Source of the DNA: a virus
Taxonomy: Duplodnaviria; Heunggongvirae; Uroviricota; Caudoviricetes
Direction: 5' to 3' (one strand)
Virus record (IMG/VR): IMGVR_UViG_2526164669_000023
Coordinates: 1 to 49,435 of that record
Length of the DNA: 49,435 bases
Shown piece after piece: positions 7,457-42,802 of this stretch. Numbering within the stretch: position 1 is the first letter of the stretch; the number at the start of each line of letters is the position of its first letter. The notes beneath the pieces were generated by a model, which was not told the DNA's origin, searched no databases, and was given only the letters and a program-made list of their open reading frames with translations. The position numbers were made by a program, and so were the translations under genes.

Positions 7457-7619
7457 TCTTATCTCTCCCCTTAACGCCGGGTGGCGGAACTAACTGCTGC
7501 ACTGCAAAATTTGAATCCCGCCGTCATGTTCATACGCCTCGGGCTGGCTACTTAACCCCTTACCACTGCCTGGTAACTCGAAGTATTGCCCGGCGTTCTG
7601 TGGGGCGGGGTGGGTGGTA

Positions 7620-7680
7620 TGCTGGAACTATAGGTAATGCCTAATTGATTGTCAATAGGCTATGCCTAATGTTTTGAGCG
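7620..7680 (-). promoter_or_regulatory. Leftward early promoter (PL-like) with operator half of a 24-bp inverted repeat
   Basis: Minus strand shows TTGACA (7650-7655), 17-bp spacer, TATAGT (7627-7632); operator-like 24-mer at 7648-7671 is the near-perfect reverse complement of 8294-8317. Confidence 0.55.
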
Positions 7681-7765
7681 TAACCTAATAGGTGATGGCG
7701 ACAGCAGAAAGTGATGGGGGGGTTAAATAACGGAATCCAGGAGTTTTCCGTCAGACCATATAAGT

Positions 7766-8242
7766 TTAAGTTCCAGTTTTTGTGATGTTCTGGCTTTTCC
7801 GTTCAGATTCTAGAGCTTTCAGATACTTACCCACTTTCATTTCCATCGCTGCTATGTAGGCGCGAACATCGTGGTCAACCCAATCTGGTTCTGTAGCATT
7901 TCCAGATAACAGGAAAGCTACAATCGCTCTTATTTCATCAGAGGCTGCTTGATAAAGGTTGTTTATATCTAAAAGTTCACTTTTTGTATCTGAATTGGTG
8001 GGAGTTGGTATGGGGTATTCGTTAAGCCCCCAATGCTCTGGACCAACAACATCAGAAAAGAAACGCCATAATTCTGGAAGTTTATCTTTACTTATAGAGC
8101 CTTTCTTAATCCAGTCATAAATTGATGGTGGTTGGACTTTGAAGTGGCGTGCGACCTCCGCCTTTGATTTGACGGATCCCGATGCGATTTTTTTGTTAAT
8201 GGCCTGCTCTATCGCTCGGCCTAAGTCTTTACCACTAAGCAT
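7766..8242 (-). CDS. racR: Prophage repressor RacR
   Basis: 158-aa ORF; N-terminus MLSGKDLGRAIEQAINKKIASGS (HTH region); divergent from ydaS as in Rac. Confidence 0.85.
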   Translation of the reverse strand: MLSGKDLGRAIEQAINKKIASGSVKSKAEVARHFKVQPPSIYDWIKKGSISKDKLPELWRFFSDVVGPEHWGLNEYPIPTPTNSDTKSELLDINNLYQAASDEIRAIVAFLLSGNATEPDWVDHDVRAYIAAMEMKVGKYLKALESERKSQNITKTGT

Positions 8243-8365
8243 TGCTTAATATTCTCCTATGCGCATTACATTAGGCAATCCCTACCCTTACCGCATTAGG
8301 CACAGCCTATTGACAATTGCGTTAGGCGTCGCCTAATATTTCTGTGTGTTTTTGGAGTTCATTCG
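8243..8365. promoter_or_regulatory. racR-ydaS divergent promoter/operator region
   Basis: Repeated ATTAGGC / GCCTAAT motifs, palindrome TTAGGCGTCGCCTAA, and TTGACA (8310-8315) followed by TAATAT about 18 bp downstream, oriented toward ydaS. Confidence 0.55.
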
Positions 8366-8662
8366 ATGAAAAAAGAGAACTATTCATTCAAGCAAGCTTG
8401 TGCTGTTGTCGGTGGGCAATCAGCAATGGCTAGGCTTTTAGGTGTATCACCTCCAAGCGTAAATCAATGGATCAAAGGGGTACGTCAATTGCCTGCCGAG
8501 AGATGTCCAGCAATTGAACGTGCAACAAGAGGTGAGGTTCTGTGCGAAGAACTTCGTCCTGATATTGACTGGTCATATTTACGACGTTCGGCATGTTGTT
8601 CGCAGAATATGTCAGTGAAGCAACTAAATGACAGTAACAAATCCTCATTTGATCATACCTGA
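8366..8662 (+). CDS. ydaS: Cro-like HTH protein YdaS
   Basis: 98-aa ORF with HTH-like N-terminus; first rightward gene opposite racR. Confidence 0.8.
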   Translation: MKKENYSFKQACAVVGGQSAMARLLGVSPPSVNQWIKGVRQLPAERCPAIERATRGEVLCEELRPDIDWSYLRRSACCSQNMSVKQLNDSNKSSFDHT

Positions 8663-8684
8663 AACATCAAGAGGCAAATGATTC

Positions 8685-9107
8685 ATGAAAATCAAGCATG
8701 AGCACATCGAATCAGTGTTGTTTGCCCTAGCAGCCGAAAAAGGGCAGGCATGGGTAGCCAATGCAATTACTGAAGAATATCTGCGCCAGGGGGGCGGCGA
8801 ATTGCCCCTGGTTCCAGGCAAGGACTGGAACAATCAGCAGAATATCTATCACCGTTGGTTGAAAGGTGAAACGAAAACGCAAAGAGAAAAAATTCAGAAG
8901 CTGATCCCAGCAATTCTGGCAATCCTTCCGCGCGAGCTGCGTCACCGACTCTGCATCTTCGATACCCTGGAACGCCGTGCATTACTGGCGGCGCAGGAAG
9001 CGTTAAGTACGGCAATTGATGCGCATGATGATGCAGTCCAGGCCGTTTACCGGAAAGCGCATTTCAGCGGCGGCGGTTCTTCCGACGATTCTGTCATTGT
9101 TCATTAA
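8685..9107 (+). CDS. ydaT: YdaT (toxic early protein / CII-like position)
   Basis: 140-aa ORF following ydaS; Rac gene order. Confidence 0.75.
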   Translation: MKIKHEHIESVLFALAAEKGQAWVANAITEEYLRQGGGELPLVPGKDWNNQQNIYHRWLKGETKTQREKIQKLIPAILAILPRELRHRLCIFDTLERRALLAAQEALSTAIDAHDDAVQAVYRKAHFSGGGSSDDSVIVH

Positions 9108-10826: not shown

Positions 10827-11960
10827 ATGACTTGTCAAAGTATAATGAGAGATTGCATGAAGATTAACCATGAGGATTTAATTGATCTTATAAAGGCATC
10901 ACTGGATGCGAATTACAGCGAAGTTCGTAGTGTTAGTAATCGCATTGTTCGCGCAATTAGCGCTCAGGATGCTGACTTAGCAAAGCAAATTAAGTCTATC
11001 ATCCGTAAAAAAGGGGTACCATTACGTAGCTCTGGTTATACGGACAGTTTGCCCTTAGATCCGAAATCAAGGATGCCTTTAGTGGAAGAAGTCGAATGGC
11101 CTGCAACGCCTTTATTTCTTTCTGATGAATCACAGCATATTTTTCATGCTTTTATTCAGAATGTTATCCATCAGAATGAACTTATAGAGAATGGAATTCC
11201 AGGTAAATTGAATTTACTTCTTTCTGGTCCGCCAGGAACAGGTAAGACATTAGTCGCTGGTCATATCGCATCCAAATTAAACAAACCGCTCTATGTTGTT
11301 CGGCTTGACTCTGTTATTTCTTCTCTGTTAGGTGATACAGCGAAGAACCTAAGACAGATTTTTGACTTCGTCCCGACAAAAGATGGTGTGTTATTTCTTG
11401 ATGAAGTAGATGCGGTTGCTAAGCTTCGTGATGACAATCAGGAAGTTGGAGAGTTAAAAAGAGTTGTTAACACATTAATCCAAGGACTGGATTCTCTTGA
11501 TGATTCTGCTATTGTCATTGCTGCAACTAATCATTCGAAGCTATTGGATCCAGCAATTTGGAGACGTTTCCCATATAAAATTAGCTTTGGTTTGCCTGGA
11601 CAAGATGTCAGATGTGCTATGTGGGAACATTTTTTATTTAGAGATGATACGGATTCATTTCTAAGTAAAATGTTATCTATCATATCAACTGGGCTAACAG
11701 GTGCTGATATTGAAAATATCAGTTTATCTGCAAGAAGGCATAGTGTTTTATCTGGCAATGGACTGGATATACCATCTGTTGTTTATGCTATATTGAATAG
11801 CGTTGCAGATAGTACAGCAATTCCTTTTGGTAAGGATATAAATTCGAGTGTTAAGAAAAATTTAGCGAAGGAATTATCTAAGTTTAAATTATCACAGGCA
11901 GATATCGGTAGACTTTTAAATGTGAGCAGGCAAACTATATCAGGTTATTTCAAGGAATAA
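10827..11960 (+). CDS. Classical-clade AAA+ ATPase with C-terminal HTH (candidate defense ATPase, IetA-like)
   Basis: Walker A LLLSGPPGTGKT, Walker B VLFLDEVDA, sensor-1 IAATN, Arg-finger region LDPAIWRRFPY; C-terminal XRE-like HTH LSQADIGRLLNVSRQTISGYF. AT-rich relative to flanks. Alternative start at Met11 (10857). Confidence 0.75.
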   Translation: MTCQSIMRDCMKINHEDLIDLIKASLDANYSEVRSVSNRIVRAISAQDADLAKQIKSIIRKKGVPLRSSGYTDSLPLDPKSRMPLVEEVEWPATPLFLSDESQHIFHAFIQNVIHQNELIENGIPGKLNLLLSGPPGTGKTLVAGHIASKLNKPLYVVRLDSVISSLLGDTAKNLRQIFDFVPTKDGVLFLDEVDAVAKLRDDNQEVGELKRVVNTLIQGLDSLDDSAIVIAATNHSKLLDPAIWRRFPYKISFGLPGQDVRCAMWEHFLFRDDTDSFLSKMLSIISTGLTGADIENISLSARRHSVLSGNGLDIPSVVYAILNSVADSTAIPFGKDINSSVKKNLAKELSKFKLSQADIGRLLNVSRQTISGYFKE

Positions 11961-11962
11961 TT

Positions 11963-12538
11963 ATGGTCAGTGAAAATAAAGCTAAAATTTTAAACCCAAT
12001 AATTACTTTATTGAAGCCACCAACGCCAGAGGCGATTCCTGTTGGAGGGAAAAGTCGTAAAAATATTGTTGATTCACGGTTGAAACAACAGCGTGAAGTT
12101 TTATCCTCAGAGATAGATTCCATATTAAGAACAGAAGGTGAAATAGTTAAACATCGTGGTAAGTATCATATAGTAACAAGTATGTTTGAGGACTCATATG
12201 CACCATCGTTTATACCAGATTCATTATTCTGTCCCAGTGTTGAATGTAAGATAGTTGCACCAGCATACAATGGATATTTAATTGAGGTCAATAGCAATGC
12301 TTTATTGAAGTTGAAAAATAAAATTAATAATGCAAAAGCTATTACTGATCTTGTGGATATTTCAAGGGTTAGAAGTGTTAGTCTTTTTGATTCATCTTGT
12401 ACATTGCGAAATAGTAGCCTTGATTCGCTCTGGAATACAGTTAAGGCTTTGAATACATTTCAATTTAATATGTGGCTTATGCCTTTTTTTGATGAGCTTT
12501 CTAGAGAGTCTGTAGTTTCAACTTTTTTAAATTTTTAA
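11963..12538 (+). CDS. Hypothetical protein, middle gene of ATPase/protease cassette
   Basis: 191-aa ORF starting 3 nt after the ATPase stop; AT-rich; no motif I recognise. Confidence 0.55.
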   Translation: MVSENKAKILNPIITLLKPPTPEAIPVGGKSRKNIVDSRLKQQREVLSSEIDSILRTEGEIVKHRGKYHIVTSMFEDSYAPSFIPDSLFCPSVECKIVAPAYNGYLIEVNSNALLKLKNKINNAKAITDLVDISRVRSVSLFDSSCTLRNSSLDSLWNTVKALNTFQFNMWLMPFFDELSRESVVSTFLNF

Positions 12539-12741
12539 ATGATGGTATCATCGCTTTTGGTTATTCAGATTTTGACATAAAAACTATAAATCAAGATGCT
12601 GCTGTTGGCGGGGATAATATAGTCATAGTTCCACCGTTACTTATTGAAGCGATAAAAAAGTATCGTAAATCAGGTCAAGCATCCGTTACCGTCACTGTAG
12701 AGACTAAAGATAGTTTAAACAGGATACTGAATAGCAGTGCT

Positions 12742-14229
12742 GTGTATCGTATAGATCCTGTATCACCGCTAAACGTAACAGATACTCCTCCTGGTAATGG
12801 GGCTGAACCTGTTCCACCAATATTGGGGGATAAGAAAATGCCAACTGTAGTTGTAATTGATGGTGGGTGTAATGCGAAATCATATTCAAATTTAAATATA
12901 TATAAACTAAATCCGCTAATTCCAGATCATGATGCAGATTGTAAACATGGTAATAAAGTTGTATCGTTGTTATGTCACGGTTATGCTTGGAATAATAATT
13001 TAAACTTACCTAAATTGCAATGTAGCTATATAAGTGCACAGGCTATTGCGAAAAGGGGAGTGTTGAAACAACCAACTCCGGATCAATTTTTAAATTATTT
13101 AAGAATGGTTGCTGACAAAACGTCATCTATCGCCAAGGTCTGGAATCTTTCGTTTAATGAAGACGCTCCTCATTATAACTGTAATGAGATAAGTTATCTG
13201 GGACATAAAATCAGTTTGTTGGCTCGAGAATTTGGTATTCTGCCTGTAATATCTATCGGTAATGTTTCAAAGAACGAAAAACAAAAAAATCTTTGTCCGC
13301 CCGCAGATTGTGAGTCAGGAATTACAGTAAGTGGGAGAACGGCCAATCATGAAGGAATGCCTTCAGATGGCTGTCCTTTAAGTCGGAAAGGCCCTGCTCC
13401 TGCAGGAATGAAAAAACCTGAGTTATCATGGTTTTCTCGAGTTAGGGTGATAGGTGGAACAGTAGATATCGGAACAAGTTTTAGTGCTCCATTAGTTTCA
13501 TCTATTGCTGCTCATACCTTTTCGAATATTAAAAATGCCACTCCTGATTTGGTTAGGGCATTATTGATTAACAGGAGTGAGTTGCTTTCTCATGATGATG
13601 CATTAGGATGGGGGACTCCTTGGGATGGCGATTTACTGCCATGGTATTGTAAAGATGGCAGTGTCACATTAACGTGGATATCTAAGTTAAAGGCTGGGGC
13701 TGCTTATTATTGGAACGATCTTCCATTACCTCCAGAGATGTTAGTTAATGGTAAATTAGTTGGTGAGATATCTCTGACAGCTATACTAAAACCTAAGGTT
13801 TCTGAGTTCGGAAGTGAGAACTATTTTTCGACAAGGCTCCAATGTTCGTTACAGGCAATAAAAGAAATTAACGGAACGCTAAAAACAGAAAGCCTTCTTG
13901 GGTCAATGAAAGAATCTTCTGTTGATGAGCGTAAAGCTAGAAATGAACTTTCTAAATGGAGCCCTATTCGCCATCATGCAGAGTCGTTTAAGAGAAAAGA
14001 TATAACAGGGTGTAAAATTCGGCTTTATGCTAGGATATATGCTAGAGATTTGTATCAGTATGGGTTAAATAACCAACGGGAGCTTGAAGAGCAAGAGGTT
14101 TCCTTTGTTTTAACTTTTAAAAGTGTATCAGGATCGTCCTCAATATATACATCAATGGTTCAGCAACTTGGTGTTTATGTTGAAAGTGCTGTTATAGATA
14201 ATCACATTAACATAGATGTTAATAAGTGA
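12742..14229 (+). CDS. Subtilisin-like serine protease (peptidase S8) with C-terminal extension (IetS-like)
   Basis: D-H-S triad motifs in canonical order: VVVIDGGC, CKHGNKVV, GTSFSAPLVSSIAA; about 250 extra C-terminal residues. Track start is GTG; an ATG (MPTVVVIDGG) lies 32 codons downstream; in-frame stop at 12616. Confidence 0.75.
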   Translation: MYRIDPVSPLNVTDTPPGNGAEPVPPILGDKKMPTVVVIDGGCNAKSYSNLNIYKLNPLIPDHDADCKHGNKVVSLLCHGYAWNNNLNLPKLQCSYISAQAIAKRGVLKQPTPDQFLNYLRMVADKTSSIAKVWNLSFNEDAPHYNCNEISYLGHKISLLAREFGILPVISIGNVSKNEKQKNLCPPADCESGITVSGRTANHEGMPSDGCPLSRKGPAPAGMKKPELSWFSRVRVIGGTVDIGTSFSAPLVSSIAAHTFSNIKNATPDLVRALLINRSELLSHDDALGWGTPWDGDLLPWYCKDGSVTLTWISKLKAGAAYYWNDLPLPPEMLVNGKLVGEISLTAILKPKVSEFGSENYFSTRLQCSLQAIKEINGTLKTESLLGSMKESSVDERKARNELSKWSPIRHHAESFKRKDITGCKIRLYARIYARDLYQYGLNNQRELEEQEVSFVLTFKSVSGSSSIYTSMVQQLGVYVESAVIDNHINIDVNK

Positions 14230-17395: not shown

Positions 17396-17471
17396 GGCCC
17401 TTTAGCTCAGTGGTGAGAGCGAGCGACTCATAATCGCCTGGTCGCTGGTTCAAATCCAGCAAGGGCCACCA
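17396..17471 (+). tRNA. tRNA with CAU anticodon (Ile2/Met type, ileZ-like)
   Basis: 76 nt; acceptor GGCCCTT/AAGGGCC, anticodon loop CTCATAA, T-arm GCTGG-TTCAAAT-CCAGC, 3' CCA. Confidence 0.8.
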
Positions 17472-17473
17472 TT

Positions 17474-17550
17474 CCGCCACTAGCTCATCGGGATAGAGCA
17501 TCAACCTTCTAAGTTGATTGTGCGAGGTTCGAGTCCTCGGTGGCGGACCA
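17474..17550 (+). tRNA. tRNA-Arg (anticodon UCU)
   Basis: 77 nt; acceptor CCGCCAC/GTGGCGG, anticodon loop CTTCTAA, T-arm CGAGG-TTCGAGT-CCTCG, 3' CCA. Confidence 0.8.
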
Positions 17551-18034
17551 TTCCATGCAAGTTTAGCTGGCAGCGCTATTAGCTCGGCGTAATAGGGCTA
17601 TTCGTTAGGCTCTGTTAGTTCACCATATTTCGTCAAAACTTTTCTTTTCAACGCTACAGTTAACGTTAATCATTACAAAAACTACTGCTGATGTAAGTCT
17701 TGTGAACTGTTATTTCTGAAGAGCTTACTGTGATTTATTGCGACAACGGAGTTAGCGTACTCCCAATTTGTTCATTTTTATGTTGTTTTTTTTCACAATT
17801 TCCTGTGAGAAATCAGAAGTCTGGATGAAATAATGCAAAATGGCATCTGAATCGATCGCAGTTTGGCATTCGAATCGATCATGATTTGGCATCCATCTCC
17901 GATCACAGTTTGGCATCACAATCGATCACGATTTGGCATACTTCCGATCATTGATTGGCATTCGCCAGTCACTCCGGGAATTAACTCTTTTCACCACAGT
18001 CTCCATTGCCGTGTTTAAACCAGTGGAGACGTCA

Positions 18035-19600
18035 ATGTCCAAAAAGAGAAAATCCAGGAGCACTATGGAAACTTGTTTTAAGATCCTTCAGCTCAAGTTC
18101 GATAAGAAGCTGACTAACCGTTGTATCGGACTGACGTTACACATCAGCGCCTCAACCGTTTTTGAGGTTCTTGCCCGCTTCAAAGCCTCTTCTCTGTCAT
18201 GGCCATTACCTGCTGATATATCCCATGACACGCTGGAGAAACTCATTTTCCCGCCCAAAGACACCTCTGCGTCAGAGCTTGTTATGCCTGACATGCTGTA
18301 CTTCGATACGGAAATGAGAAAACCTGGCGTGACGCGCCAACTGTTGTGGATGGAATACAAGGCACAGGCGGGTGACAAAGCGATGGGATACTCACACTTC
18401 TGCCGTTGCTACCGGAAGTGGAAAAAAACGCGACGCCTCTCCATGCGACAGGAGCATCGTGCTGGCGAAAAGCTCTTTATCGACTTCTGTGGTCCTACGC
18501 TTCCTGTTATTAATCCGGACACCGGAGAGATACGCCGCGTGGCAATCTTCGTGGCTGTAATGGGGGCGTCCAACTATACCTATGTTGAAGCGTGCGAAGG
18601 TCAGGACATGATGTCATGGTTAAATGCCCACAGCCGTTGCCTGACCTTCCTGGGCGGCGTACCGAAGCTGCTCATCCCCGATAACCTCAGAAGCGCAGTG
18701 AAAAAAGCCGATCGCTATGAGCCTGTCATCAACGACAGTTATCAGGCGCTGGCTGAGCACTATGGCACGGTTATTATCCCGGCCCGCCCGCGCAAACCTA
18801 AAGATAAACCAAAAGCAGAAAACGGCGTCCTCATCGTCGAGCGATGGCTTCTTGCCCGCATCCGTAATGAAACCTTCCACACGCTCAGGGCGCTGAATGC
18901 ACGCCTTCGGGAGTTGCTGACGGACATGAATAACCGACCAATGAAGGGATACGGTAATCAAACCCGCGCAGAACGCTTCCGCATGCTGGATGCACCAGCA
19001 CTCTCTCCGCTGCCTCTGGAGCCTTATGAATACACGGAATACAAAGCCGTGAAGGTTGGCCCTGACTACCACGTTGAATATGCCCGTCACTGGTACTCCG
19101 TTCCACACGAACTGGTCGGTCAGCGTCTGTCACTGAAGGTGGGGCAGTCGGTGGTACAGCTCTGGCACAAGGGGCAGTGTGTGGCGCAACATCCGCGCAG
19201 CACACATGAATATAAACACACAACCAATCCGCTTCACATGCCAGAACGCCACCGGCGGCATGGGACATGGACACCGGAACGCCTTATCGAGCAGGGAAAC
19301 CGTACAGGTCCGTCCACAGGCCGGGTGGTTGAATCCATGCTGAAAGCCAAACCCCATCCGGAGCTGGCTTACCGTGCAGTCCTGGGTCTGCTGGCACTTC
19401 AGAAAAAATACGGCCCGGAACGGCTGGAAAAGGCCTGTTACGTTGCCCTGCACTATAACGCCCCGGACAGACGCTTTATCGACAATCTGCTGCGTCATCA
19501 TCGGGATAACGTTGAGCTTCCGTTATCCCGCCAGGGCGAACAACATCCGGCATATGCTTCAGAGCATGAAAACCTGCGTGGTCCTGGCTACTACCACTGA
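18035..19600 (+). CDS. istA: IS21-family transposase IstA
   Basis: 521 aa from MSKKRKSRSTMETCF; N-terminal HTH and DDE-type core; followed by an IstB ATPase. Confidence 0.8.
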   Translation: MSKKRKSRSTMETCFKILQLKFDKKLTNRCIGLTLHISASTVFEVLARFKASSLSWPLPADISHDTLEKLIFPPKDTSASELVMPDMLYFDTEMRKPGVTRQLLWMEYKAQAGDKAMGYSHFCRCYRKWKKTRRLSMRQEHRAGEKLFIDFCGPTLPVINPDTGEIRRVAIFVAVMGASNYTYVEACEGQDMMSWLNAHSRCLTFLGGVPKLLIPDNLRSAVKKADRYEPVINDSYQALAEHYGTVIIPARPRKPKDKPKAENGVLIVERWLLARIRNETFHTLRALNARLRELLTDMNNRPMKGYGNQTRAERFRMLDAPALSPLPLEPYEYTEYKAVKVGPDYHVEYARHWYSVPHELVGQRLSLKVGQSVVQLWHKGQCVAQHPRSTHEYKHTTNPLHMPERHRRHGTWTPERLIEQGNRTGPSTGRVVESMLKAKPHPELAYRAVLGLLALQKKYGPERLEKACYVALHYNAPDRRFIDNLLRHHRDNVELPLSRQGEQHPAYASEHENLRGPGYYH

Positions 19601-19616
19601 CAGAAGGAACAACCGT

Positions 19617-20372
19617 ATGAGTGATAATCTGTTAAACAAACTGACCCAACTGAAACTCCCGGCGATGGCCGGGAGCCTGATACGGCAACGGGAAACGCCT
19701 CAGACTTACGACGAACTGTCGTTCGAGGAAAGGCTGACACTGCTGGTTGATGACGAGCTTCTGAGCAGAGAAAACAGTCGTGTGGCACGGTTGAGAAAAA
19801 ATGCCTGCCTGAAATATCAGGCAACACCGGAAGGGCTGCGTTATCCGGCCTCAAGAGGTCTGCGGGCTGAACAGATGAGGGAACTGCTGAACGGCCACTA
19901 CATAATCCACAGGAAAAACCTACTGATAACCGGTCCGACAGGATGCGGTAAGAGCTGGATAGCCAATGCGCTGGGCGAACAGGCATGTCGACAGAAATAC
20001 AGCGTCCGGTACTGTAGAACCGGGCGATTACTGGAACAGTTGGCTCAGGGACGTGTTGATGGCAGTTGGCTGAAATATCTGAAACAGTTGCAAAAAATAC
20101 AGGTTCTAATCCTGGACGATCTGGGGCTGGAACAGTTAAGTAACGCCCAGTGTAATGACCTTCTGGAGATCACAGAGGATCGTTACGGACAAAGCAGCAC
20201 GATAGTGGTAAGCCAGTTCCCGGTAGATAAATGGCATGGTCTGATGGAGAACCCAACAACAGCAGATGCCATCCTGGACAGACTGGTACATAACTCACAC
20301 AGAGTGGTCCTTCAGGGAGAGTCCCTGAGGAAAAATCCCCCGACAGTGGAAAGCAGCGAAAAAACGAGTTAA
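19617..20372 (+). CDS. istB: IS21-family helper ATPase IstB
   Basis: 251 aa from MSDNLLNKLTQLKLPAMAG; Walker A GPTGCGKSWIANAL, Walker B VLILDDLG. Confidence 0.8.
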   Translation: MSDNLLNKLTQLKLPAMAGSLIRQRETPQTYDELSFEERLTLLVDDELLSRENSRVARLRKNACLKYQATPEGLRYPASRGLRAEQMRELLNGHYIIHRKNLLITGPTGCGKSWIANALGEQACRQKYSVRYCRTGRLLEQLAQGRVDGSWLKYLKQLQKIQVLILDDLGLEQLSNAQCNDLLEITEDRYGQSSTIVVSQFPVDKWHGLMENPTTADAILDRLVHNSHRVVLQGESLRKNPPTVESSEKTS

Positions 20373-22387: not shown

Positions 22388-22570
22388 ATGAGCAGAAAAC
22401 ACTGGACACACAGAACGCCGCGAACAGCGGCGAAATGGGCACTGGTAGCGATACTGGTGCCTTTTTTATTGGTGGGATGCGTTAGCCTGGATAAGGCGCG
22501 CCAGCTTTTCGATACCGCGTCTCAGGTCTGTCAGCTTATTGATGGTGTTCGGCAGTGTATGCAGAACTGA
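22388..22570 (+). CDS. Lysis-associated lipoprotein (Rz1/o-spanin-like)
   Basis: 60 aa from MSRKHWTHRTPRT; signal peptide and lipobox LLVGC; downstream of the endolysin. Confidence 0.45.
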   Translation: MSRKHWTHRTPRTAAKWALVAILVPFLLVGCVSLDKARQLFDTASQVCQLIDGVRQCMQN

Positions 22571-22743
22571 TCGCCTGTAATAGCAGAATATTTTGCTGAA
22601 AAATGAAGGGTGCGCCAGCGTCCGGAAAGCATGAAATTCTGCTGCGTGTGCCAATTTTATCTTATTCATTCTAAATCTTGCCGAATCAAGATGAACTTTG
22701 ATCAACTGCCTGGCGGCAAGGGGCATTAAAACAGGAGAAAATT

Positions 22744-22851
22744 ATGTGGAAACCTACAGGTGACAAGTTAATCACCGCGTTGATTGACGGCAAGCCACAA
22801 TACTTACGCATTGAAATGAGTGGTCAGCATGCTCGTTTGATTCGTGAGTAA
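22744..22851 (+). CDS. Small hypothetical ORF (35 aa)
   Basis: Strong RBS AGGAGAAAATT before ATG; MWKPTGDKLITALIDGKPQYLRIEMSGQHARLIRE; below track cutoff. Confidence 0.35.
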   Translation: MWKPTGDKLITALIDGKPQYLRIEMSGQHARLIRE

Positions 22852-22974
22852 CAGGCATTACAGCAGCCCTTCATGGTGAGGGGTTGCGATAATGCCAAAG
22901 CTCGTCATCGGCACCCGCCGCGCACCCAGCGTACTGGCCGATAGCGGGCTTTTTTATTCATAAAGCGAGGCTGT

Positions 22975-23766
22975 ATGAGCGAGAAATTGAAGATCGTCTA
23001 TCGCCCGTTACAAGAACTGTCTCCGTATGCACACAATGCCAGGACACACAGCCCTGAGCAGGTGGCACAACTGGTAGAAAGCATTAAGCAATTCGGCTGG
23101 ACTAATCCAGTGCTGATTGATGAAAAGGGCGAAATTATTGCTGGTCACGGTCGCGTTATGGCGGCTGAGGCGCTCAAAATGGATTCGGTTCCGGTTATTG
23201 TTCTGTCTGGTCTGACGGATGATCAGAAAAAGGCGTACCGCCTGGCAGATAATCGCCTGCCGATGAATGCTGGCTGGGATGAAGATCTGTTACGGATGGA
23301 GCTGTCGGACCTAATCAATGCTGATTTTGATATCTCCCTGACAGGATGCAGCCCGACAGAAATTGATGAACTGTTGACGGATGTTTTGCCCGGTACAGGA
23401 AATGAGGAGGAACCGTACACGACGAAAATTGATACGCCTGTTTATGAGCCGTCGGGCGATAAACCAGATATCAGTGAACTGTACGACGATACGAAAACTC
23501 AGGAGTTGATCAGCCGGATACGTTCGGCGTCCCTTGATCCTGATATTGAGAAATTCCTCCTGTGTGCGGCAGAACGTCATACGGTGTTTAATTTCAGCAG
23601 AATTGCGGACTATTACGCTCACGCCCCCGCTGAAATTCAGTGCTTTTTCGAGGAATCGGCGCTGGTGATCATTGATTATCAGCAGGCTATTGAAAATGGA
23701 TTTGTCCGGATGACGCAGCGTATGGTGGAGATCATGCATGGCGGGGAGGAGGAGGAATATGCGTGA
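22975..23766 (+). CDS. ParB-like nuclease domain protein
   Basis: 263-aa ORF; N-terminal ParB/Srx-type motif (LIDEKGEIIAGHGRVMAA); acidic C-terminus; upstream of terminase genes. Confidence 0.6.
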   Translation: MSEKLKIVYRPLQELSPYAHNARTHSPEQVAQLVESIKQFGWTNPVLIDEKGEIIAGHGRVMAAEALKMDSVPVIVLSGLTDDQKKAYRLADNRLPMNAGWDEDLLRMELSDLINADFDISLTGCSPTEIDELLTDVLPGTGNEEEPYTTKIDTPVYEPSGDKPDISELYDDTKTQELISRIRSASLDPDIEKFLLCAAERHTVFNFSRIADYYAHAPAEIQCFFEESALVIIDYQQAIENGFVRMTQRMVEIMHGGEEEEYA

Positions 23767-24697
23767 TGATTTTTGCGCCTTTATTCTGACTCACGGGCGA
23801 CCGGACAAAGTTCTGACTTACCGGACGTTGCGTCGTGCTGGCTATACCGGGAAAATTTTTATCGTTGTTGATGATGAAGATAAAGATAATACACGGCATC
23901 ACTACATAGCTGAATTTAGTGAACAGGTGCTGGTGTTTTCCAAAGCCGATATCGCCAGTCGTTTTGACGAAGCCGATAATTTCGGTGACCGCCGATCAAT
24001 TTTTTACGCCCGTAATGCCTGTTTCGACCTGGCAAAACTGGTCGGGTGTAAATACTTCATTCAGCTCGATGATGATTATCACGAGTTCCAGTTTCGGGTG
24101 GATCGCAACTATGACCAGGCCTATTTCCCGATAAGAAAACTGGATGCGATCCTTTCTGAAATGCTGGCGTACTACGAATCAATACCTGCGCTTTCCATCG
24201 CTATGTCGCAGGGCGGAGATTTTCTTGGTGACAATGGCGGCCATGCTTCGTGGGTGAAACGCAAGGCAATGAACAGTTTTATCTGTTCCGTTGATCGACC
24301 GTTCTCATTCATGGGGCGCATTAACGAGGATGTGAATACGTATACGAATCTTGGTCGCTGTGGTGAATTGTTTATGACGATCGGTGCTGTCCAGTTAGGG
24401 CAGAAACAGACGCAGAAAAACAGCGGCGGAATGACCGAGCTGTATCTGGACTCCGGAACCTACGTTAAAAGTTTTTACTCCGTCATGTATGCGCCGTCGT
24501 GCGTAAAAATCTCACTGATGGGTGCCAGCCATAAACGCATTCACCATCAGGTCACCTGGAACAACGCTGCAGTAAAAATCCTTCACGAAAAATACAGGAA
24601 GAAGACACCCTGCATATCAATGGGGGTGACAAATGATTCCGTATTCGAAAGTAGAGTCTCTGGCAGCGTGCCGGATGACTGCACAACAAATCGCTGA
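23759..24697 (+). CDS. Hypothetical protein, possible GT-A-like glycosyltransferase
   Basis: 312 aa from MRDDFCAFILTHGRPDK; candidate DXD motif FIQLDDDY; RBS GGAGGAGGAA; overlaps the ParB-like gene by 8 nt. Function is a guess. Confidence 0.4.
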   Translation: MRDDFCAFILTHGRPDKVLTYRTLRRAGYTGKIFIVVDDEDKDNTRHHYIAEFSEQVLVFSKADIASRFDEADNFGDRRSIFYARNACFDLAKLVGCKYFIQLDDDYHEFQFRVDRNYDQAYFPIRKLDAILSEMLAYYESIPALSIAMSQGGDFLGDNGGHASWVKRKAMNSFICSVDRPFSFMGRINEDVNTYTNLGRCGELFMTIGAVQLGQKQTQKNSGGMTELYLDSGTYVKSFYSVMYAPSCVKISLMGASHKRIHHQVTWNNAAVKILHEKYRKKTPCISMGVTNDSVFESRVSGSVPDDCTTNR

Positions 24698-24884
24698 CGT
24701 TCTGGATGTTGATCTGAACCGACTGAAAGAAAATCGGGAAGCAATGACAGATTTTTACGCATCCATCCGTAAGGGCAGAGCGAAAGGTGAAGCCGAACTA
24801 CGGGCGGCATTGTTTAAGCTTGCCAGAAAAGGGGATGCCTTTGCCCTGCGTGAACTACTCAGGGTGGATAAAAATCAGGACTAA
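24675..24884 (+). CDS. Small hypothetical protein (possible HTH)
   Basis: Track ORF 24633-24884; likely start at MTAQQIADVLDVDL; immediately precedes the small terminase gene. Confidence 0.35.
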   Translation: MTAQQIADVLDVDLNRLKENREAMTDFYASIRKGRAKGEAELRAALFKLARKGDAFALRELLRVDKNQD

Positions 24885-24887
24885 CTA

Positions 24888-25979
24888 ATGAGCAGACCGG
24901 ACTGGGGGGCGTTGCAGCAGGAATATATTGCTGAATACACCCGCTCCGGTGTATCCCCGGTGGCATGGTGTGAGGCAAGGGGACTGAATTACGCAACAGC
25001 CCGTCGTTACATCAAAAAACCTCCGAAAAATGCGCAGACAGAAATGCGCAAAACTGCGCAACAAAGTGCGCAGAAAAAATCTGCGCAGACTGCGCAAAAG
25101 CGGAACGGAAAATCTCAGAAAAAAAAGCCAGTATCCGATGCGTGCCTGAATGAGGGCGACGCGGAGGAATTTTCGTTCTGCCCCGATGAATTCGGCATTT
25201 CTGACCAGCAGGCTAAGTTTGCGATGCTTGTTGCTCAGGGGAAAAAGCCGACAGAGGCATACCGACTGGCTGGTTATGAGGGGCAAGGTGCGACAGCTAA
25301 CAGCAACGCCAGCCGTATGCTTAGAAATGCCAGGGTTTATCGTGCTATCAGCTACTTCCGCAATCAGTATCAGAAACGCTATACCGCAGACCTGGATTTA
25401 CTGGTGAGTCAGTTGATGGCCATTGTCCAGGCCGACCCCAATCAGTTGGCACAATTTCGCCGTGTTAACTGCCGTTATTGCTGGGGCGAGAATCACCTCT
25501 ACCAGTGGCGTGATATTGCAGAATTCGATAAGGCAGCGGCACAGGCCTCCAGAGATGGCAAACCCGAGCCGGAATATGGAGGCCTCGGCTTTGTTGATAA
25601 CGCCATACCCAATCCGGATTGTCCGAAGTGCTGCGGTGAGGGAACGGGACAGCTTTATATGGCTGATACCACTCTGCTTGATGGGGATGCACGACAATTA
25701 TATGCAGGGGCAAAGCTCGGGAAATTTGGTGTTGAGATCCTGCTGGAGGATAAGGCTGCCGCCCGGCGCGAACTTATCAAGCTGATAATGGCGACGAAAG
25801 GAAGTTCTGCTGGTGGTGCAACTGACAGTCGCAATGATCTGGAGCTTGAAGGACTGAGGCTTCGCAACGAAAAGCTGCGCACTGAGATTGAAAACCTCAA
25901 AAAAGGCGTGGGTGGTGAGAATAACGAAATAATTATCCACAACTCTCTGCCGATGCCGGGAGTGGATAATGTCGATTGA
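24888..25979 (+). CDS. Terminase small subunit
   Basis: 363-aa ORF; HTH-like signature AKFAMLVAQGKKPTEAYRLAGYEG; Cys pairs (CRYCWGEN...CPKCCGEG); directly upstream of the large terminase. Confidence 0.6.
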   Translation: MSRPDWGALQQEYIAEYTRSGVSPVAWCEARGLNYATARRYIKKPPKNAQTEMRKTAQQSAQKKSAQTAQKRNGKSQKKKPVSDACLNEGDAEEFSFCPDEFGISDQQAKFAMLVAQGKKPTEAYRLAGYEGQGATANSNASRMLRNARVYRAISYFRNQYQKRYTADLDLLVSQLMAIVQADPNQLAQFRRVNCRYCWGENHLYQWRDIAEFDKAAAQASRDGKPEPEYGGLGFVDNAIPNPDCPKCCGEGTGQLYMADTTLLDGDARQLYAGAKLGKFGVEILLEDKAAARRELIKLIMATKGSSAGGATDSRNDLELEGLRLRNEKLRTEIENLKKGVGGENNEIIIHNSLPMPGVDNVD

Positions 25980-27297
25980 AATCTACCTCCCAAAACCTCA
26001 TGAGGGGCAAATAGCTGCATGGACGGCGGCAATAGAGGAACGCTTCCACGCGGTATGCTGTGGTCGTCGCTGGGGTAAAACGGTGATGCTGGTAAACATC
26101 GCTACCAGTTTCGCTACGCGGAAATTTGCCGTTCCTACCACCGGGCAACTTATCGCGGGTAGGGTGGGGATTTTTACCGCACAATACCGCCAGTACCAGG
26201 AAATCTGGGATGAAATTAGCGCCGTTCTGCAACCGCTGATCCTCAGCCAGTCAAAAAATGAAAAGCGCATTATTCTCCGTAATGGGGGGCGCATCGACTT
26301 TTGGGTAACGGACAATAACAAACTGGCCGGGCGTGGGCGTAAATATCACGCTGTGCTGATTGATGAGGCAGCATTCACTAAATCGCCGGAAATGCTCGAG
26401 GAAATCTGGCCCCGAGCTATACGCCCGACGCTTGTCGATTACCGCGGCTGTGCGTGGGTATTTTCCACACCAAACGGTATCGACGAGAGCAATTTTTTCT
26501 ACGCGATATGCCACGATGAATCCCTGGGATTTGTCATGCACCATGCGCCAACTTCATCGAATCCGTATATTCCGAAAGAAGAACTGGAGGAAACGGAGAA
26601 GAAATCCGATCCGCGCGTCTGGCAGCAGGAATATCTTGCCGAGTTCGTGGACTGGTCCAAAGACGCGTTACTCGATGTCGATAAGCTGCTGGTGGACGGT
26701 CAGCCGATTGAGATGCCGCCGTACTGCGACATGATTTTCGCAGTGATGGATACGGCGCTGAAAGGCGGGACCGAAAATGATGGTACTGGCGTGTTGTATT
26801 TCGCTTATGAGTCAACGTATTCGGAAGAGCCAAAACTGACGATTATTGACTGGGATGTGACGCAAATTAAAGCGTCATTGCTTCCTGAATATATCCCCGG
26901 CGTTTATGACAACCTTGAGCGCCTCGCGAAATTATGCCGTCCGCGTCTGGGCAGCCAGGGAATTTTTATGGAAGACGCCGCGATGGGGGCAATCCTCAAC
27001 CAGAAGGCGGAAACCGAAGGCTGGGATATGACGCCGATTAAATCGGCACTAACCAGCAAGGGCAAAGACGAACGGGCGGTGATGGCATCCAGCTACCACT
27101 ATCAGGGGATGTGCAAAATCGTCCGGGAGGCTTACGACAAGACCGTTTCATTCAAGCGCACCACCGCAAACCACCTCATAAAACAAATCGCCGGATTCCA
27201 CCTGGCGGATAAAGACGCGCATAAACGTGCTGATGACCTTTTCGATTGTTACACCTATGGATTGATCATCGCGCACGGTAATTACGCGGAGTTGTAA
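25969..27297 (+). CDS. Terminase large subunit
   Basis: 442-aa ORF; Walker A VCCGRRWGKT; Walker-B-like HAVLIDEAAF; position between TerS and portal. Confidence 0.7.
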   Translation: MSIEIYLPKPHEGQIAAWTAAIEERFHAVCCGRRWGKTVMLVNIATSFATRKFAVPTTGQLIAGRVGIFTAQYRQYQEIWDEISAVLQPLILSQSKNEKRIILRNGGRIDFWVTDNNKLAGRGRKYHAVLIDEAAFTKSPEMLEEIWPRAIRPTLVDYRGCAWVFSTPNGIDESNFFYAICHDESLGFVMHHAPTSSNPYIPKEELEETEKKSDPRVWQQEYLAEFVDWSKDALLDVDKLLVDGQPIEMPPYCDMIFAVMDTALKGGTENDGTGVLYFAYESTYSEEPKLTIIDWDVTQIKASLLPEYIPGVYDNLERLAKLCRPRLGSQGIFMEDAAMGAILNQKAETEGWDMTPIKSALTSKGKDERAVMASSYHYQGMCKIVREAYDKTVSFKRTTANHLIKQIAGFHLADKDAHKRADDLFDCYTYGLIIAHGNYAEL

Positions 27298-27311: not shown

Positions 27312-28751
27312 TTGATGGCAGAGATCGAGATTACTGGCGGCCTCGGTTCAGCACTGATGCGTATTCTTGAGGCTGAAGAAATTCAGCCGGGAACCGATAT
27401 TGGCTATGAATTGTGTAAGCTGCTGTGGCAATTCCATCCTCTGGGCGGAAAACTTGTCGAAAAACCCATACTGATGGCGATGTGTAAGCCGCGACAGTAT
27501 AACGTGGAGACAGATCCTGACGAGAGGGTTGTGCGGCGTTTCCAGGAGGTATGGGAACGTATGAGGGTCAACGAGAAGATAAAAAATCTGTTTTTTCTGT
27601 CTCGTTGCTACGGTGCTGCAGCGATCGGCGTGGGCACCGACAGTGTTTCATGTCGTGAGCCGCTTCCGACATTCGGGCTGACAGAAGAGGATGTGTATAT
27701 CAACGCGTGGGATCCGTTGAACGCTTCCGGTTCGATGGTGACTGACCAGAACCCAAACAGTCCGTTTTTCCAGGAAGCCAACAAAAGGCTGAAGATTGGC
27801 GGAAAAGACTGGCATCCGTCACGCACACTGAAAATCTTCAACGGCACACCGATTTATCTGGAGTTTCAGAGTTCATCGTTCGGATTCACCGGACGAAGTG
27901 TGTTTCAGCGCGTTCTTTATTCCCTGAAATCCTATATCAACACGATGGAGGCGAATGATCTCGTCAGTCAGAAGGCGGGCGTACTGGTAGCTAAAGTTGT
28001 GCAGTCCGGTTCGAAAATGGACGGGATCATGGCTGCTGCCACGGGGCGTAAAAGGGAAAACGTGAAAGCCGCCAAAAATAAAGGCGTGTTGAGTATTGGA
28101 AAAGACGAAGACGTAAGTTCACTGAACCTGCAAAACATCGACGGGGCGCTGAATACTGCCCGCGACAATATCATTGCTGATATTGCCGCCGGGAGTGACG
28201 TTCCGGCCATTATTATCAAGGAAGAAGCATTCAGTAACGGATTCGGTGAAGGTAAGGAGGACTCGAAAGCCATCAGCCAGTATATCGATGGTGTACGCCA
28301 GCAGATTGAACCTGTGATGGATTATTTCGAACGCCTGGTGCAGTACATCGCCTGGAACGAGGAATTTTATCAGTCGCTGAAAAATGATTACCCGGACATC
28401 ATAACCGAGGACTATAAAACCACGTTTTACCAGTGGCGGCGCGAGTTTACCGCGACGTGGCAGGAGCTGGTGGAGGAGTCGCCGGACAAACGCCGGGAAA
28501 GCGACAGTAAAGTGATTCAACAGGCGATAGCACTTTTCTCTGCCGTGTCGCTACAGGTTGATCCTGAAAACCGTGCCGCCGTCACTGAATGGCTGGCAAG
28601 CCTTGTTAATGCCACGCAGACCTATGGCGAAGCTCCACTCATCATTGATGTGGACGCCCTGGCGAATTATGAACCACCGAAGCAGGAGACGCCTGATGGC
28701 AATTTCCAGCCGGGCGGGGAGGAAGAAGAAACGGATCAGGACGCTGTATGA
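27312..28751 (+). CDS. Portal protein (putative)
   Basis: 479-aa ORF immediately after TerL; acidic C-terminus; assigned by position and size. Confidence 0.5.
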   Translation: MMAEIEITGGLGSALMRILEAEEIQPGTDIGYELCKLLWQFHPLGGKLVEKPILMAMCKPRQYNVETDPDERVVRRFQEVWERMRVNEKIKNLFFLSRCYGAAAIGVGTDSVSCREPLPTFGLTEEDVYINAWDPLNASGSMVTDQNPNSPFFQEANKRLKIGGKDWHPSRTLKIFNGTPIYLEFQSSSFGFTGRSVFQRVLYSLKSYINTMEANDLVSQKAGVLVAKVVQSGSKMDGIMAAATGRKRENVKAAKNKGVLSIGKDEDVSSLNLQNIDGALNTARDNIIADIAAGSDVPAIIIKEEAFSNGFGEGKEDSKAISQYIDGVRQQIEPVMDYFERLVQYIAWNEEFYQSLKNDYPDIITEDYKTTFYQWRREFTATWQELVEESPDKRRESDSKVIQQAIALFSAVSLQVDPENRAAVTEWLASLVNATQTYGEAPLIIDVDALANYEPPKQETPDGNFQPGGEEEETDQDAV

Positions 28752-42652: not shown

Positions 42653-42802
42653 ATCACAGTTTTATGATAAAACTTTTACCTTGGTTTGGAGTGCTGTAGA
42701 GAGATATTTTAGGGGGGGCGAGTAATTTTCTAAGCTGGAGCATATTGACATATATTATTTCGGATTTGCAAAATACATATTGTTACCATGGAGGAGACAA
42801 GC

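Follow-up and report, generated by a model that had tools for sequence, protein, structure and literature searches.

We analyzed a window of 49,435 nucleotides, i.e., the whole stretch of DNA presented here (positions 1 to 49,435 of the Caudoviricetes record IMGVR_UViG_2526164669_000023 in IMG/VR), focusing on two adjacent genes that encode a ParB-like protein of 263 amino acids (aa) and a glycosyltransferase (GT) of 312 aa. The window was found to be a Rac-like lambdoid prophage of Escherichia coli, and its positions 2976 to 44697 are identical to NZ_AP042478.1 (strain OkiPb01675) save for one missing base. In the 5′ part, the integrase gene, recT, and recE are followed by racR, ydaS, and ydaT, the replication genes, and IetA/IetS; the middle part carries the nin and Q genes, two tRNA genes, an IS21-family element, the holins, an M15 endolysin, and a spanin. 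The late part comprises the ParB-like gene, the GT gene, a gene for an 83-aa helix-turn-helix (HTH) protein, terS, terL, the portal gene, and a myovirus-type head/tail module. The pair sits between the lysis cassette and terS/terL, in agreement with an earlier reading of this DNA (here, the original prediction) that had placed it directly upstream of the packaging genes: the ORF for the 83-aa HTH/terS-like protein, terS, and terL follow it in that order.

The two open reading frames (ORFs) overlap by 8 nucleotides, as had been noticed originally, with the GT start codon ATG at 23759 to 23761 and the stop codon TGA of the ParB-like gene at 23764 to 23766. The coding sequence of the G-E-E-E-E tail of the ParB-like protein doubles as a strong Shine-Dalgarno sequence for the GT gene, GGGGAGGAGGAGGA, and the two genes are translationally coupled in a textbook arrangement. 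A longer version of the GT starting at the in-frame ATG at 23738 was considered and rejected; we take 23759 as the real start because the homologs all begin with MRDDF and the RefSeq annotation agrees. Overlapping stop and start codons were likewise found in Lactobacillus gasseri phage phi jlb1, haloarchaeal virus HHTV-2, L. delbrueckii phage c5, Nocardia phage NTR1, and Porphyromonas phage005b.

Table 1. Positions of the features discussed in the text, numbered along the window.
Feature	Position	Strand	Evidence or remark
ParB-like adaptor gene, 263 aa	22975-23766	+	ORF list; RefSeq ynaK / "ParB/Srx family N-terminal domain-containing protein"
ParB-CTPase-fold nucleotide-binding domain, aa 1-95	22975-23259	+	Pfam ParB_N, Spo0J alignment, Foldseek
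Helix-helix segment, aa 103-134	23281-23376	+	AlphaFold2 helices 103-115, 120-123, and 127-134
TAGT-partner module, aa ~145-255	23407-23739	+	Linear motif in acidic disordered linker plus helical domain
Linear motif Y148-T-x-K-x-x-x-P155-x-Y157-E-P-x-G-x-x-P164	23416-23466	+	In predicted disordered linker
Coupling junction	23743-23766	+	Shine-Dalgarno GGGGAGGAGGAGGA (23743-23756), GT ATG at 23759, ParB TGA
TAGT-family GT-A glycosyltransferase gene, 312 aa	23759-24697	+	RefSeq "GREB1-related protein"
D104-D105-D106 in FIQLDDDY	24068-24076	+	Predicted metal and NDP-sugar binding motif; invariant
83-aa HTH protein	24633-24884	+	Related to terminase small-subunit segment; PHROG 309, 1.7e-22
terS	24888-25979	+	Pfam Terminase_2, 7.6e-9; PHROG 51, 2e-71
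terL	25969-27297	+	Pfam and PHROG profile matches
IetA	10827-11960		PADLOC PDLC02196, 5e-100
IetS (S8 peptidase), split ORFs	11963-12538 and 12742-14229		PADLOC PDLC02197, 1e-58

The TAGT family, reportedly defined by Iyer et al. in 2013, was matched by the 312-aa protein with 114.3 bits against a cut-off of 27.5 (Pfam PF20691, 9.6e-33), aa 8 to 224 aligning to positions 4 to 205 of the 205-position profile. A second match, to PHROG 842 ("beta-glucosyl-HMC-alpha-glucosyltransferase"), covered aa 1 to 300 (5.6e-101). More than 7,830 homologs were present in the database, with PF20691 in all of the matches listed, and no PADLOC model matched the protein. Across 20 homologs with identity down to 60%, the invariant residues were R14, D38, D41, D70-E71-x-D73-N74-F75, D104-D105-D106, Q151-G-G-D154, N189-E190-D191, and R260-x-H262-H263. 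The DXD-like FIQLDDDY motif pointed out originally therefore holds up, its three aspartates being unchanged throughout this set. R14 together with the DDD at 104 to 106 and the NED at 189 to 191 corresponds to the R...DDD...ED motif of validated phage GT-A DNA glycosyltransferases (bioRxiv 2023.12.21.572611).

The AlphaFold2 (AF2) model of the GT has a mean predicted local distance difference test score (pLDDT) of 65, mostly 80 to 97 in the N-terminal half and below 50 in the C-terminal half. Foldseek aligned it with SpsA, glycogenin, K4CP, and other GT-A enzymes in the PDB, and with viral TAGT models at an E value of 3e-20 and template modeling (TM) scores of 0.63 to 0.69. Profile and structure searches, which had been proposed as a check that might assign the protein to a non-transferase family, thus returned TAGT. 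Judging by the Pfam and PHROG matches, the GT-A model, and the presence of all published TAGT motifs, the 312-aa protein is a full-length TAGT-family GT-A glycosyltransferase with its catalytic motifs intact. What had been called a possible GT-A enzyme is thereby upheld, whereas the accompanying statement that the protein has no other recognizable features has to be dropped, since a curated family matches it over its whole length.

The ParB-like protein begins with a nucleotide-binding domain (NBD) of the ParB-CTPase fold and a helix-helix segment, which the AF2 model (pLDDT 61, and below 50 over aa 136 to 170) continues as a predicted disordered acidic linker at aa 136 to 170 and a helical C-terminal domain. 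Several searches supported the ParB/Srx-type N-terminal motif of the original prediction. ParB_N (PF02195) matched aa 23 to 88 at 1.3e-6, marginally, with 28.8 bits against a cut-off of 26.3; TIGR00180 matched the NBD only, at 2.4e-9 with 37.2 bits, below its cut-off of 58.45; a phmmer search of the PDB found Spo0J (1vz0) at 3e-4, with GERR aligned with GHGR; and Foldseek matched the model to Noc, PadC, ParB, KorB, and Srx. In place of the canonical ParB nucleotide boxes I to III (N/Q-x-R, G-E-R-R, and E-N-x-x-R), the NBD has N21-A-R23, G57-H-G-R60, and D92-N93-R94, so that box II keeps one arginine and has histidine instead of the catalytic glutamate. N21, G57, G59, R60, D92, and N93 are invariant. 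Nucleoside triphosphate (NTP) binding by ParB-CTPase folds and its specificity are not predictable from sequence, and orphan members carried by mobile elements, frequently as methylase fusions, bind a variety of NTPs (PMC12704722). The whole protein has a net charge of −26 and a pI of 4.45, and it is strongly acidic in all lineages.

The same N-terminal part occurs in another setting. Its aa 3 to 141 aligned with positions 31 to 171 of the 633 of PHROG 498 (2.1e-50), and aa 10 to 144 matched the PADLOC MTase_II model PDLC03229 (1.7e-37). In addition, aa 1 to 144 showed 40 to 55% identity to the N termini of phage DNA methylases, encoded by genes annotated as "DNA modification methylase" in Vibrio and Streptococcus phages and cyanophages. 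By this homology, aa 1 to 144 are the same module as is found fused to DNA methylases in phages.

The remainder of the protein, which we call the TAGT-partner module (C-module), belongs to a family of its own. An exhaustive phmmer search with aa 141 to 263 against 1.84 billion representatives of 50%-identity clusters yielded 1,189 clusters at E values of ≤1e-3, with 1,009 of them at ≤1e-10, and no family covered the module in a scan of Pfam and NCBIfam. PF23887 (L5 gp47-like) gave sub-threshold short matches (E values of 0.008 to 0.05), which we did not take as homology. From 150 representatives, we derived the consensus Yt.ki..P.Yep.g..P....L.d..kt..L...I...FL..AA.RHtvf....IAe.Yaha....Q.LmE.SALVIiDf..Aie.Gf, in which Y148, P155, Y157, P164, R201, H202, E226, S228, and D234 are essentially invariant. 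This conservation of polar residues exceeds what a simple dimerization domain needs. The linear motif at the start of the module, which could serve for docking or be an acceptor site, keeps Y148 in 148 of 148 representatives, P155 in 147 of 149, Y157 in 149 of 149, and P164 in 148 of 149. Most proteins with the module also have a ParB-like N-domain, and some consist of the module alone, with 128 to 160 aa. Such NBD-free versions were found in Vibrio phage pv27 and several metagenomic loci. In pv27 and its relatives (191-kb Vibrio phages), the partner is the C-module alone, of 139 aa, encoded directly before the TAGT gene (positions 7459 to 8888 of locus L086), and this pair lies amid replication genes (primase, exonuclease, and helicase), not beside the terminase.

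The two genes were found together wherever we looked from either side. In a search seeded with the GT, all 80 IMG/VR loci (59 to 99% identity) had the ParB gene immediately upstream, usually overlapping; in one seeded with two distant representatives of the C-module, the TAGT gene was immediately downstream in 28 of 28 loci, several of which lack a recognizable NBD. Adjacency is thus obligate in every locus sampled. The pair occurs in phi jlb1 (43% GT identity), c5 and its relatives, NTR1 (47%), Porphyromonas phage005b (27%), and HHTV-2 (42% GT identity). That the two genes form one module, as had been supposed, is borne out by this adjacency in bacterial and archaeal viruses and by the translational coupling. 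Across 51 loci, pairwise distances of the GT correlated with those of the C-module (r = 0.90) better than with those of the NBD (r = 0.78), and the gap widened among distant pairs (0.68 versus 0.27). The C-module therefore tracks the GT more closely than does the NBD of the same polypeptide; linked genes share ancestry, and we regard this as supportive, not conclusive.

GenBank phage records label such proteins "chromosome (plasmid) partitioning protein," and an ordinary partition ParB, serving a plasmid-like prophage stage and next to the GT only incidentally, would account for that name. However, no HTH was found in the model of the ParB-like protein and no ParA gene in the prophage, which is integrated with an integrase of its own. 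The TIGR00180 score of 37 bits against 58.45, the net charge of −26, and the adjacency to TAGT in 28 of 28 and 80 of 80 loci also speak against it. A partition role is refuted by architecture and synteny, and we leave it next to no probability.

In E. coli, a match was present in 1,565 of 5,426 complete genomes (~29%) and the full-length pair in 889. One carrier is the common laboratory strain E. coli W, in which the pair lies at 1520763 to 1522476 of NC_017635.1 with 97.5% identity. We take the Rac prophage of K-12 to retain only a remnant of ynaK. In many database "proteins" (e.g., P0008, P0033, P0035, and P0037), the GT continues in frame into terS or pieces of other late genes; these fusions are internal deletions in decaying prophages and are consistent with the full-length pair occurring in just 889 of the 1,565 matching genomes. 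Natural fusions of the C-terminal domain (CTD) of the ParB-like protein with the GT were also sought, and the long database entries turned out to be deletion or assembly chimeras or low-quality reads. An HK97-like metagenomic phage (loci L088, 17837 to 20316, and L089, 8659 to 11138) carries four consecutive GT2-family genes right after the capsid gene and a ParB-TAGT pair before terS; the four genes may be a virion-glycosylation cassette apart from the pair.

Both genes are under purifying selection, with dN/dS (nonsynonymous to synonymous substitution rates) of 0.09 to 0.14 for the ParB-like gene and 0.06 to 0.16 for the GT gene, synonymous sites being saturated in the more distant comparisons. 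These values bear on whether the pair could be a nonfunctional, decaying remnant of a TET/JBP-ParB-GT hypermodification cluster that has lost its dioxygenase, as the absence of a dioxygenase here and the naming of the TAGT family for its TET/JBP association might suggest. Such decay is at odds with dN/dS within 0.06 to 0.16 for both genes (synonymous sites being saturated), with the invariance of all catalytic residues, and with the recurrence of the dioxygenase-free pair in distant phyla and archaeal viruses. Moreover, clusters with ParB-dependent dioxygenases were found in a published survey to be associated with kinases and amino-acid:DNA transferases, not with GTs (PMC13229309). The selection and distribution data largely refute this explanation, and its probability is very slight.

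In almost every locus, the pair lies directly before terS or terL, and a Pfam scan of 150 neighboring ORFs from 35 diverse loci was dominated by terminase large-subunit and portal families. In enterobacterial phages, the pair is accompanied by the gene for the 83-aa HTH protein (orf83), which is kept 3′ of the GT in loci L002 to L074 and for which RefSeq gives the start at 24675. Many loci have other terL families in place of terL while the ParB-like gene, the GT gene, orf83, and terS are kept. The block from the ParB-like gene to terS is ~85% identical in many prophages with a terL of a different family (loci L006 to L048), and similarity there stops ~15 codons 5′ of the terS stop codon, which suggests a recombination joint at the terS C terminus contacting terL.

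This neighborhood, held across phyla, invites the idea of a packaging accessory, in which the ParB-like protein would aid the terminase in recognizing or cutting pac/cos and the GT would modulate it, by analogy to the HNH proteins of HK97-like phages and in line with the historic label "ParB-like nuclease." The persistence of the link to orf83 and terS despite terL exchange in enterobacterial phages, and the lack of an annotated terS between the pair and terL in Nocardia NTR1, fit this idea. On the other hand, the ParB-like protein is strongly negatively charged, lacks a DNA-binding domain, and contains no motif that would support the nuclease label; the Vibrio phages keep the C-module and GT amid replication genes; and no role of a glycosyltransferase in packaging is known. 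Phage DNA methylase genes and hypermodification clusters occupy late-operon positions just as typically, and the latter have been reported in the terminase neighborhood as well. We consider a packaging role quite improbable.

The fold and the host range bear on a further explanation, namely, that the target of the GT is a glycan of the cell envelope or a pool of small-molecule sugars or nucleotides and that its partner is a regulator, for example, in superinfection exclusion or interference with defense signaling. Its nearest PDB folds, SpsA, K4CP, and glycogenin, are generic polysaccharide-acting GT-A enzymes, and models of related phage GT-A enzymes resemble the prophage teichoic-acid N-acetylglucosamine (GlcNAc) transferase TarP (bioRxiv 2023.12.21.572611). 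However, the Gram-negative, Gram-positive, actinobacterial, Bacteroidota, and haloarchaeal hosts share no envelope acceptor; neither protein has an apparent membrane segment or signal; expression would be late lytic and not lysogenic; and a ParB-fold partner common to DNA methylases would be left unexplained. An envelope or pool target thus appears highly improbable.

Our best reading, to which we give not quite an even chance, is that the pair encodes a DNA glycosyltransferase of two subunits that is expressed late, has a ParB-type activator, and possibly uses a new acceptor. The 312-aa inverting-type GT-A TAGT enzyme would be the catalytic subunit, binding a nucleoside diphosphate (NDP)-sugar and a divalent metal through D104 to D106, and the 263-aa protein would be its dedicated partner, with the C-module (aa ~145 to 255) docking on the GT, by prediction on its basic, poorly modeled C-terminal half (aa 225 to 290). 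The ParB-CTPase-fold N-domain might act as a nucleotide-gated activator or targeting device, a role with a precedent in the ParB activators of phage thymine dioxygenases, which work on double-stranded DNA. It would thus play the part, still poorly understood, that it has with phage DNA methylases and dioxygenases. Produced alongside the terminase from the late operon, the pair would place sugars on replicated phage DNA just before packaging, and the injected DNA would be shielded from restriction or other nucleic-acid-targeting defenses in the next host. Sugar-decorated phage DNA is a major determinant in the contest with restriction, CRISPR, and type IV defenses.

From several lines of analogy, we infer that the two proteins bind each other, that their substrate is DNA, and that the modification is protective. 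The viral TAGT members characterized so far all act on DNA (PMC13216743; bioRxiv 2023.12.21.572611), the N-module of the partner also occurs fused to phage DNA methylases, and a study from 2026 demonstrated the activation of phage DNA dioxygenases by ParB-like proteins. The layout of the partner, which matches that of these activators, and the terminase neighborhood, reported also for phage DNA hypermodification clusters, speak for this reading as well. Replicated phage DNA is suggested as the target by this analogy together with coexpression with the terminase. The possible DNA-modification or anti-restriction module put forward in the original prediction is supported in part: the coupling of the two genes is well supported, and action on DNA, argued by analogy, stays the best reading but comes without an acceptor enzyme.

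This missing enzyme heads the points that weigh against DNA as the substrate. We found no TET/JBP, C5-methyltransferase, or hydroxymethylase in the prophage, whose unnamed genes are head/tail proteins or unannotated PHROG families in the structural module plus one HSDR_N endonuclease. TET_JBP was not among the families matched by at least two of the 150 ORFs from the 35 loci, and no dioxygenase or hydroxymethylase appears in the annotation of the first 34.3 kb (~90%) of phi jlb1 (38 kb) or the first 21.7 kb (~68%) of c5 (32 kb). The first 50 kb of the 191 kb of pv27 has a thymidylate synthase gene beside one for dihydrofolate reductase (DHFR), which points to ordinary dTMP synthesis. The absence of an acceptor-making enzyme is the main obstacle to DNA modification, and the original prediction had missed it. 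To our knowledge, every characterized DNA-acting relative in the TAGT family requires DNA that already carries a hydroxymethyl group or a sugar, and in all the sugar-decoration routes known to us, the phage first makes 5-hydroxymethylcytosine (5hmC) or 5-hydroxymethyluracil (5hmU). We know of no precedent for direct glycosylation of canonical DNA by a GT-A enzyme.

Other points in the same direction concern the partner, the models, and published work. A protein with a net charge of −26 and no DNA-binding domain is a poor fit to a DNA clamp, and the AF2 models are mediocre (pLDDT of 65 and 61), with low confidence in the C-terminal half of the GT and in the partner module. Mutation of NTP-binding residues had little effect in the 5mYOX precedent, where the role of the NBD is unsettled (PMC13229309).

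With 5hmC or 5hmU made by the phage excluded, an acceptor in DNA would have to be one of the canonical bases or some other group that is always present. A self-sufficient system that puts the sugar directly on a canonical, nonhydroxymethylated base (or another universal group of DNA) after replication seems unlikely to us. If true, it would add a hitherto undescribed chemistry of DNA modification, encoded by temperate as well as lytic viruses that infect Proteobacteria, Firmicutes, Actinobacteria, Bacteroidota, or haloarchaea, and in prophages of ~29% of complete E. coli genomes.

The lack of a hydroxymethyl source and the acidic partner without a DNA-binding domain keep protein glycosylation alive as the main rival, which we consider rather unlikely. 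Here, the GT would transfer the sugar to a hydroxyl of its own partner (Y148, Y157, or T/S149) or to another phage or host protein, the C-terminal helical domain providing the docking site and presenting the acceptor peptide. Both tyrosines are present in every representative in which they are aligned (Y148 in 148 of 148 and Y157 in 149 of 149), in an acidic, DNA-like segment predicted to be disordered; proteins that have lost the NBD still keep the motif and the helical domain; the partner resembles the usual DNA substrate of TAGT in being polyanionic; and a protein acceptor would not need the hydroxymethylated base that the phage cannot make. GREB1, which has a TAGT-family domain, O-GlcNAcylates estrogen receptor alpha (ER-alpha) at T553/S554 (PMC7968844), a finding that favors a protein acceptor and counts against DNA as the substrate. 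However, the viral TAGTs characterized so far all act on DNA, the N-module is common to DNA methylases, and a glycosylated ParB-like protein has no apparent function. Position 149 varies among T, S, and A, leaving only the tyrosines as acceptor candidates, and an invariant linear motif is equally expected of a docking peptide.

Apart from the pair, several features of the prophage were noted. Between the spanin and ParB-like genes, 400 bp (22570 to 22975) carry no RefSeq feature and contain only short ORFs, including one of 35 codons at 22745 to 22852; no clear promoter or terminator was predicted there. The IS21-family element (ISSso4; istA and istB, ~17396 to 20372) lies between the tRNA-Ile/tRNA-Arg genes, which are 3′ of Q, and the holin genes, and thus within the leader of the late operon that carries the ParB-GT pair; the insertion may impair late transcription and inducibility of this prophage. 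An Iet anti-phage defense pair (10827 to 14229) is located between the replication and nin genes. Compared with NZ_AP042478.1, which is otherwise identical, a single T is missing at 12532 and splits the IetS gene; this is either a genuine frameshift or an error of sequencing. Amid the baseplate genes, a low-GC (39%) gene at 42788 to 43963 encodes an HSDR_N nuclease-like domain (Pfam, 5.6e-14), HSDR_N being the N-terminal domain of the R subunit of type I restriction enzymes; it matched PHROG 4225 ("endonuclease") at 4.7e-149 and no PADLOC model, and we regard it as a moron with no role assigned. The gene in the portal position (27312 to 28751) has the RefSeq name "anti-CBASS protein Acb1 family protein," which, judging by its size and place 3′ of terL, looks like an artifact of a shared domain model.

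Among known systems, the beta-glucosyl-HMC-alpha-glucosyltransferase of T2/T6 shares with the GT the Pfam/PHROG family, the GT-A fold, and the DDD and ED motifs, and it is also a phage enzyme acting after replication. It adds a second glucose to glucosyl-5hmC made by other phage enzymes (PMC13216743). Unlike the T-even phages, this prophage lacks dCMP hydroxymethylase and both the alpha- and the beta-GT; T4-like relatives show just 22 to 26% identity and no partner module was found with them, whereas the partner is obligate here. The GT-A enzymes associated with 5mYOX (TET) in phages are likewise viral, have the R...DDD...ED pattern, and frequently have terminase and ParB-like neighbors (Burke 2021, PMC8256090; Pyle 2024, bioRxiv 2023.12.21.572611). 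These use 5hmC or 5hmU supplied by a neighboring methyltransferase and dioxygenase, neither of which is present here or recurrent in the 35 neighborhoods. In the latter study, contigs with a GT and without a 5mYOX or ThyS gene were set aside as less likely to be DNA modifying. The trypanosome JGT, which phage GT-A models resemble structurally (bioRxiv 2023.12.21.572611), differs in glucosylating 5hmU made by JBP and in having no ParB-like partner. GREB1, after which RefSeq names the GT "GREB1-related," differs in O-GlcNAcylating a protein and likewise has no such partner.

For the ParB-like protein, a close parallel is 5mYOX176/ParB176 (O'Toole et al. 2026, PMC13229309), in which ParBs are cognate-specific activators of thymine dioxygenases on double-stranded DNA. 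Its partners have the same layout of an NBD, short helices, a disordered linker of ~50 aa, and a CTD without an HTH, and are also encoded beside the client enzyme. Here, however, the client is a TAGT glycosyltransferase and not a TET/JBP-type dioxygenase, of which none is present, and in that study GTs associate with the ParB-independent subclass of dioxygenases (PMC13229309). The C-terminal module also differs from that of ParB176, as it forms a separate family tied to TAGT in every sampled locus, with some lineages dropping the NBD. Phage fusions of ParB with N6/N4 DNA methyltransferases (PHROG 498; PDLC03229) share the homologous N-terminal 144 aa and are often encoded close to where the late or packaging region begins. 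In our protein, no methyltransferase domain is fused; the remainder is the TAGT-partner module, and the GT is encoded separately.

In a literature search, we found no description of the pair of a ParB module and TAGT and no functional information on ynaK. The gene family is already known and the locus is very common; what appears undescribed so far is that this TAGT clade is obligately coupled to a ParB-type adaptor, that the adaptor has a C-terminal domain family of its own, and that the lack of an acceptor-making enzyme is conserved. If DNA is modified, the pair would represent a new acceptor chemistry and, after the dioxygenases, a second enzyme class reliant on a repurposed ParB protein; if its own partner is glycosylated, it would be a new viral protein-glycosylation system built on a DNA-modification scaffold. 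"Solitary TAGT homologs" were reported in 288 of 753 GT-bearing phage genomes and their function was called undefined (NAR 2026, PMC13216743). The locus described here, having neither an alpha- nor a beta-GT, is one of them, and the obligate ParB-type partner with its C-terminal module, which that study does not report, sets it apart from the description given there. Either outcome would provide a function for this large set of solitary TAGTs and for an unnamed domain family of more than 1,000 clusters.

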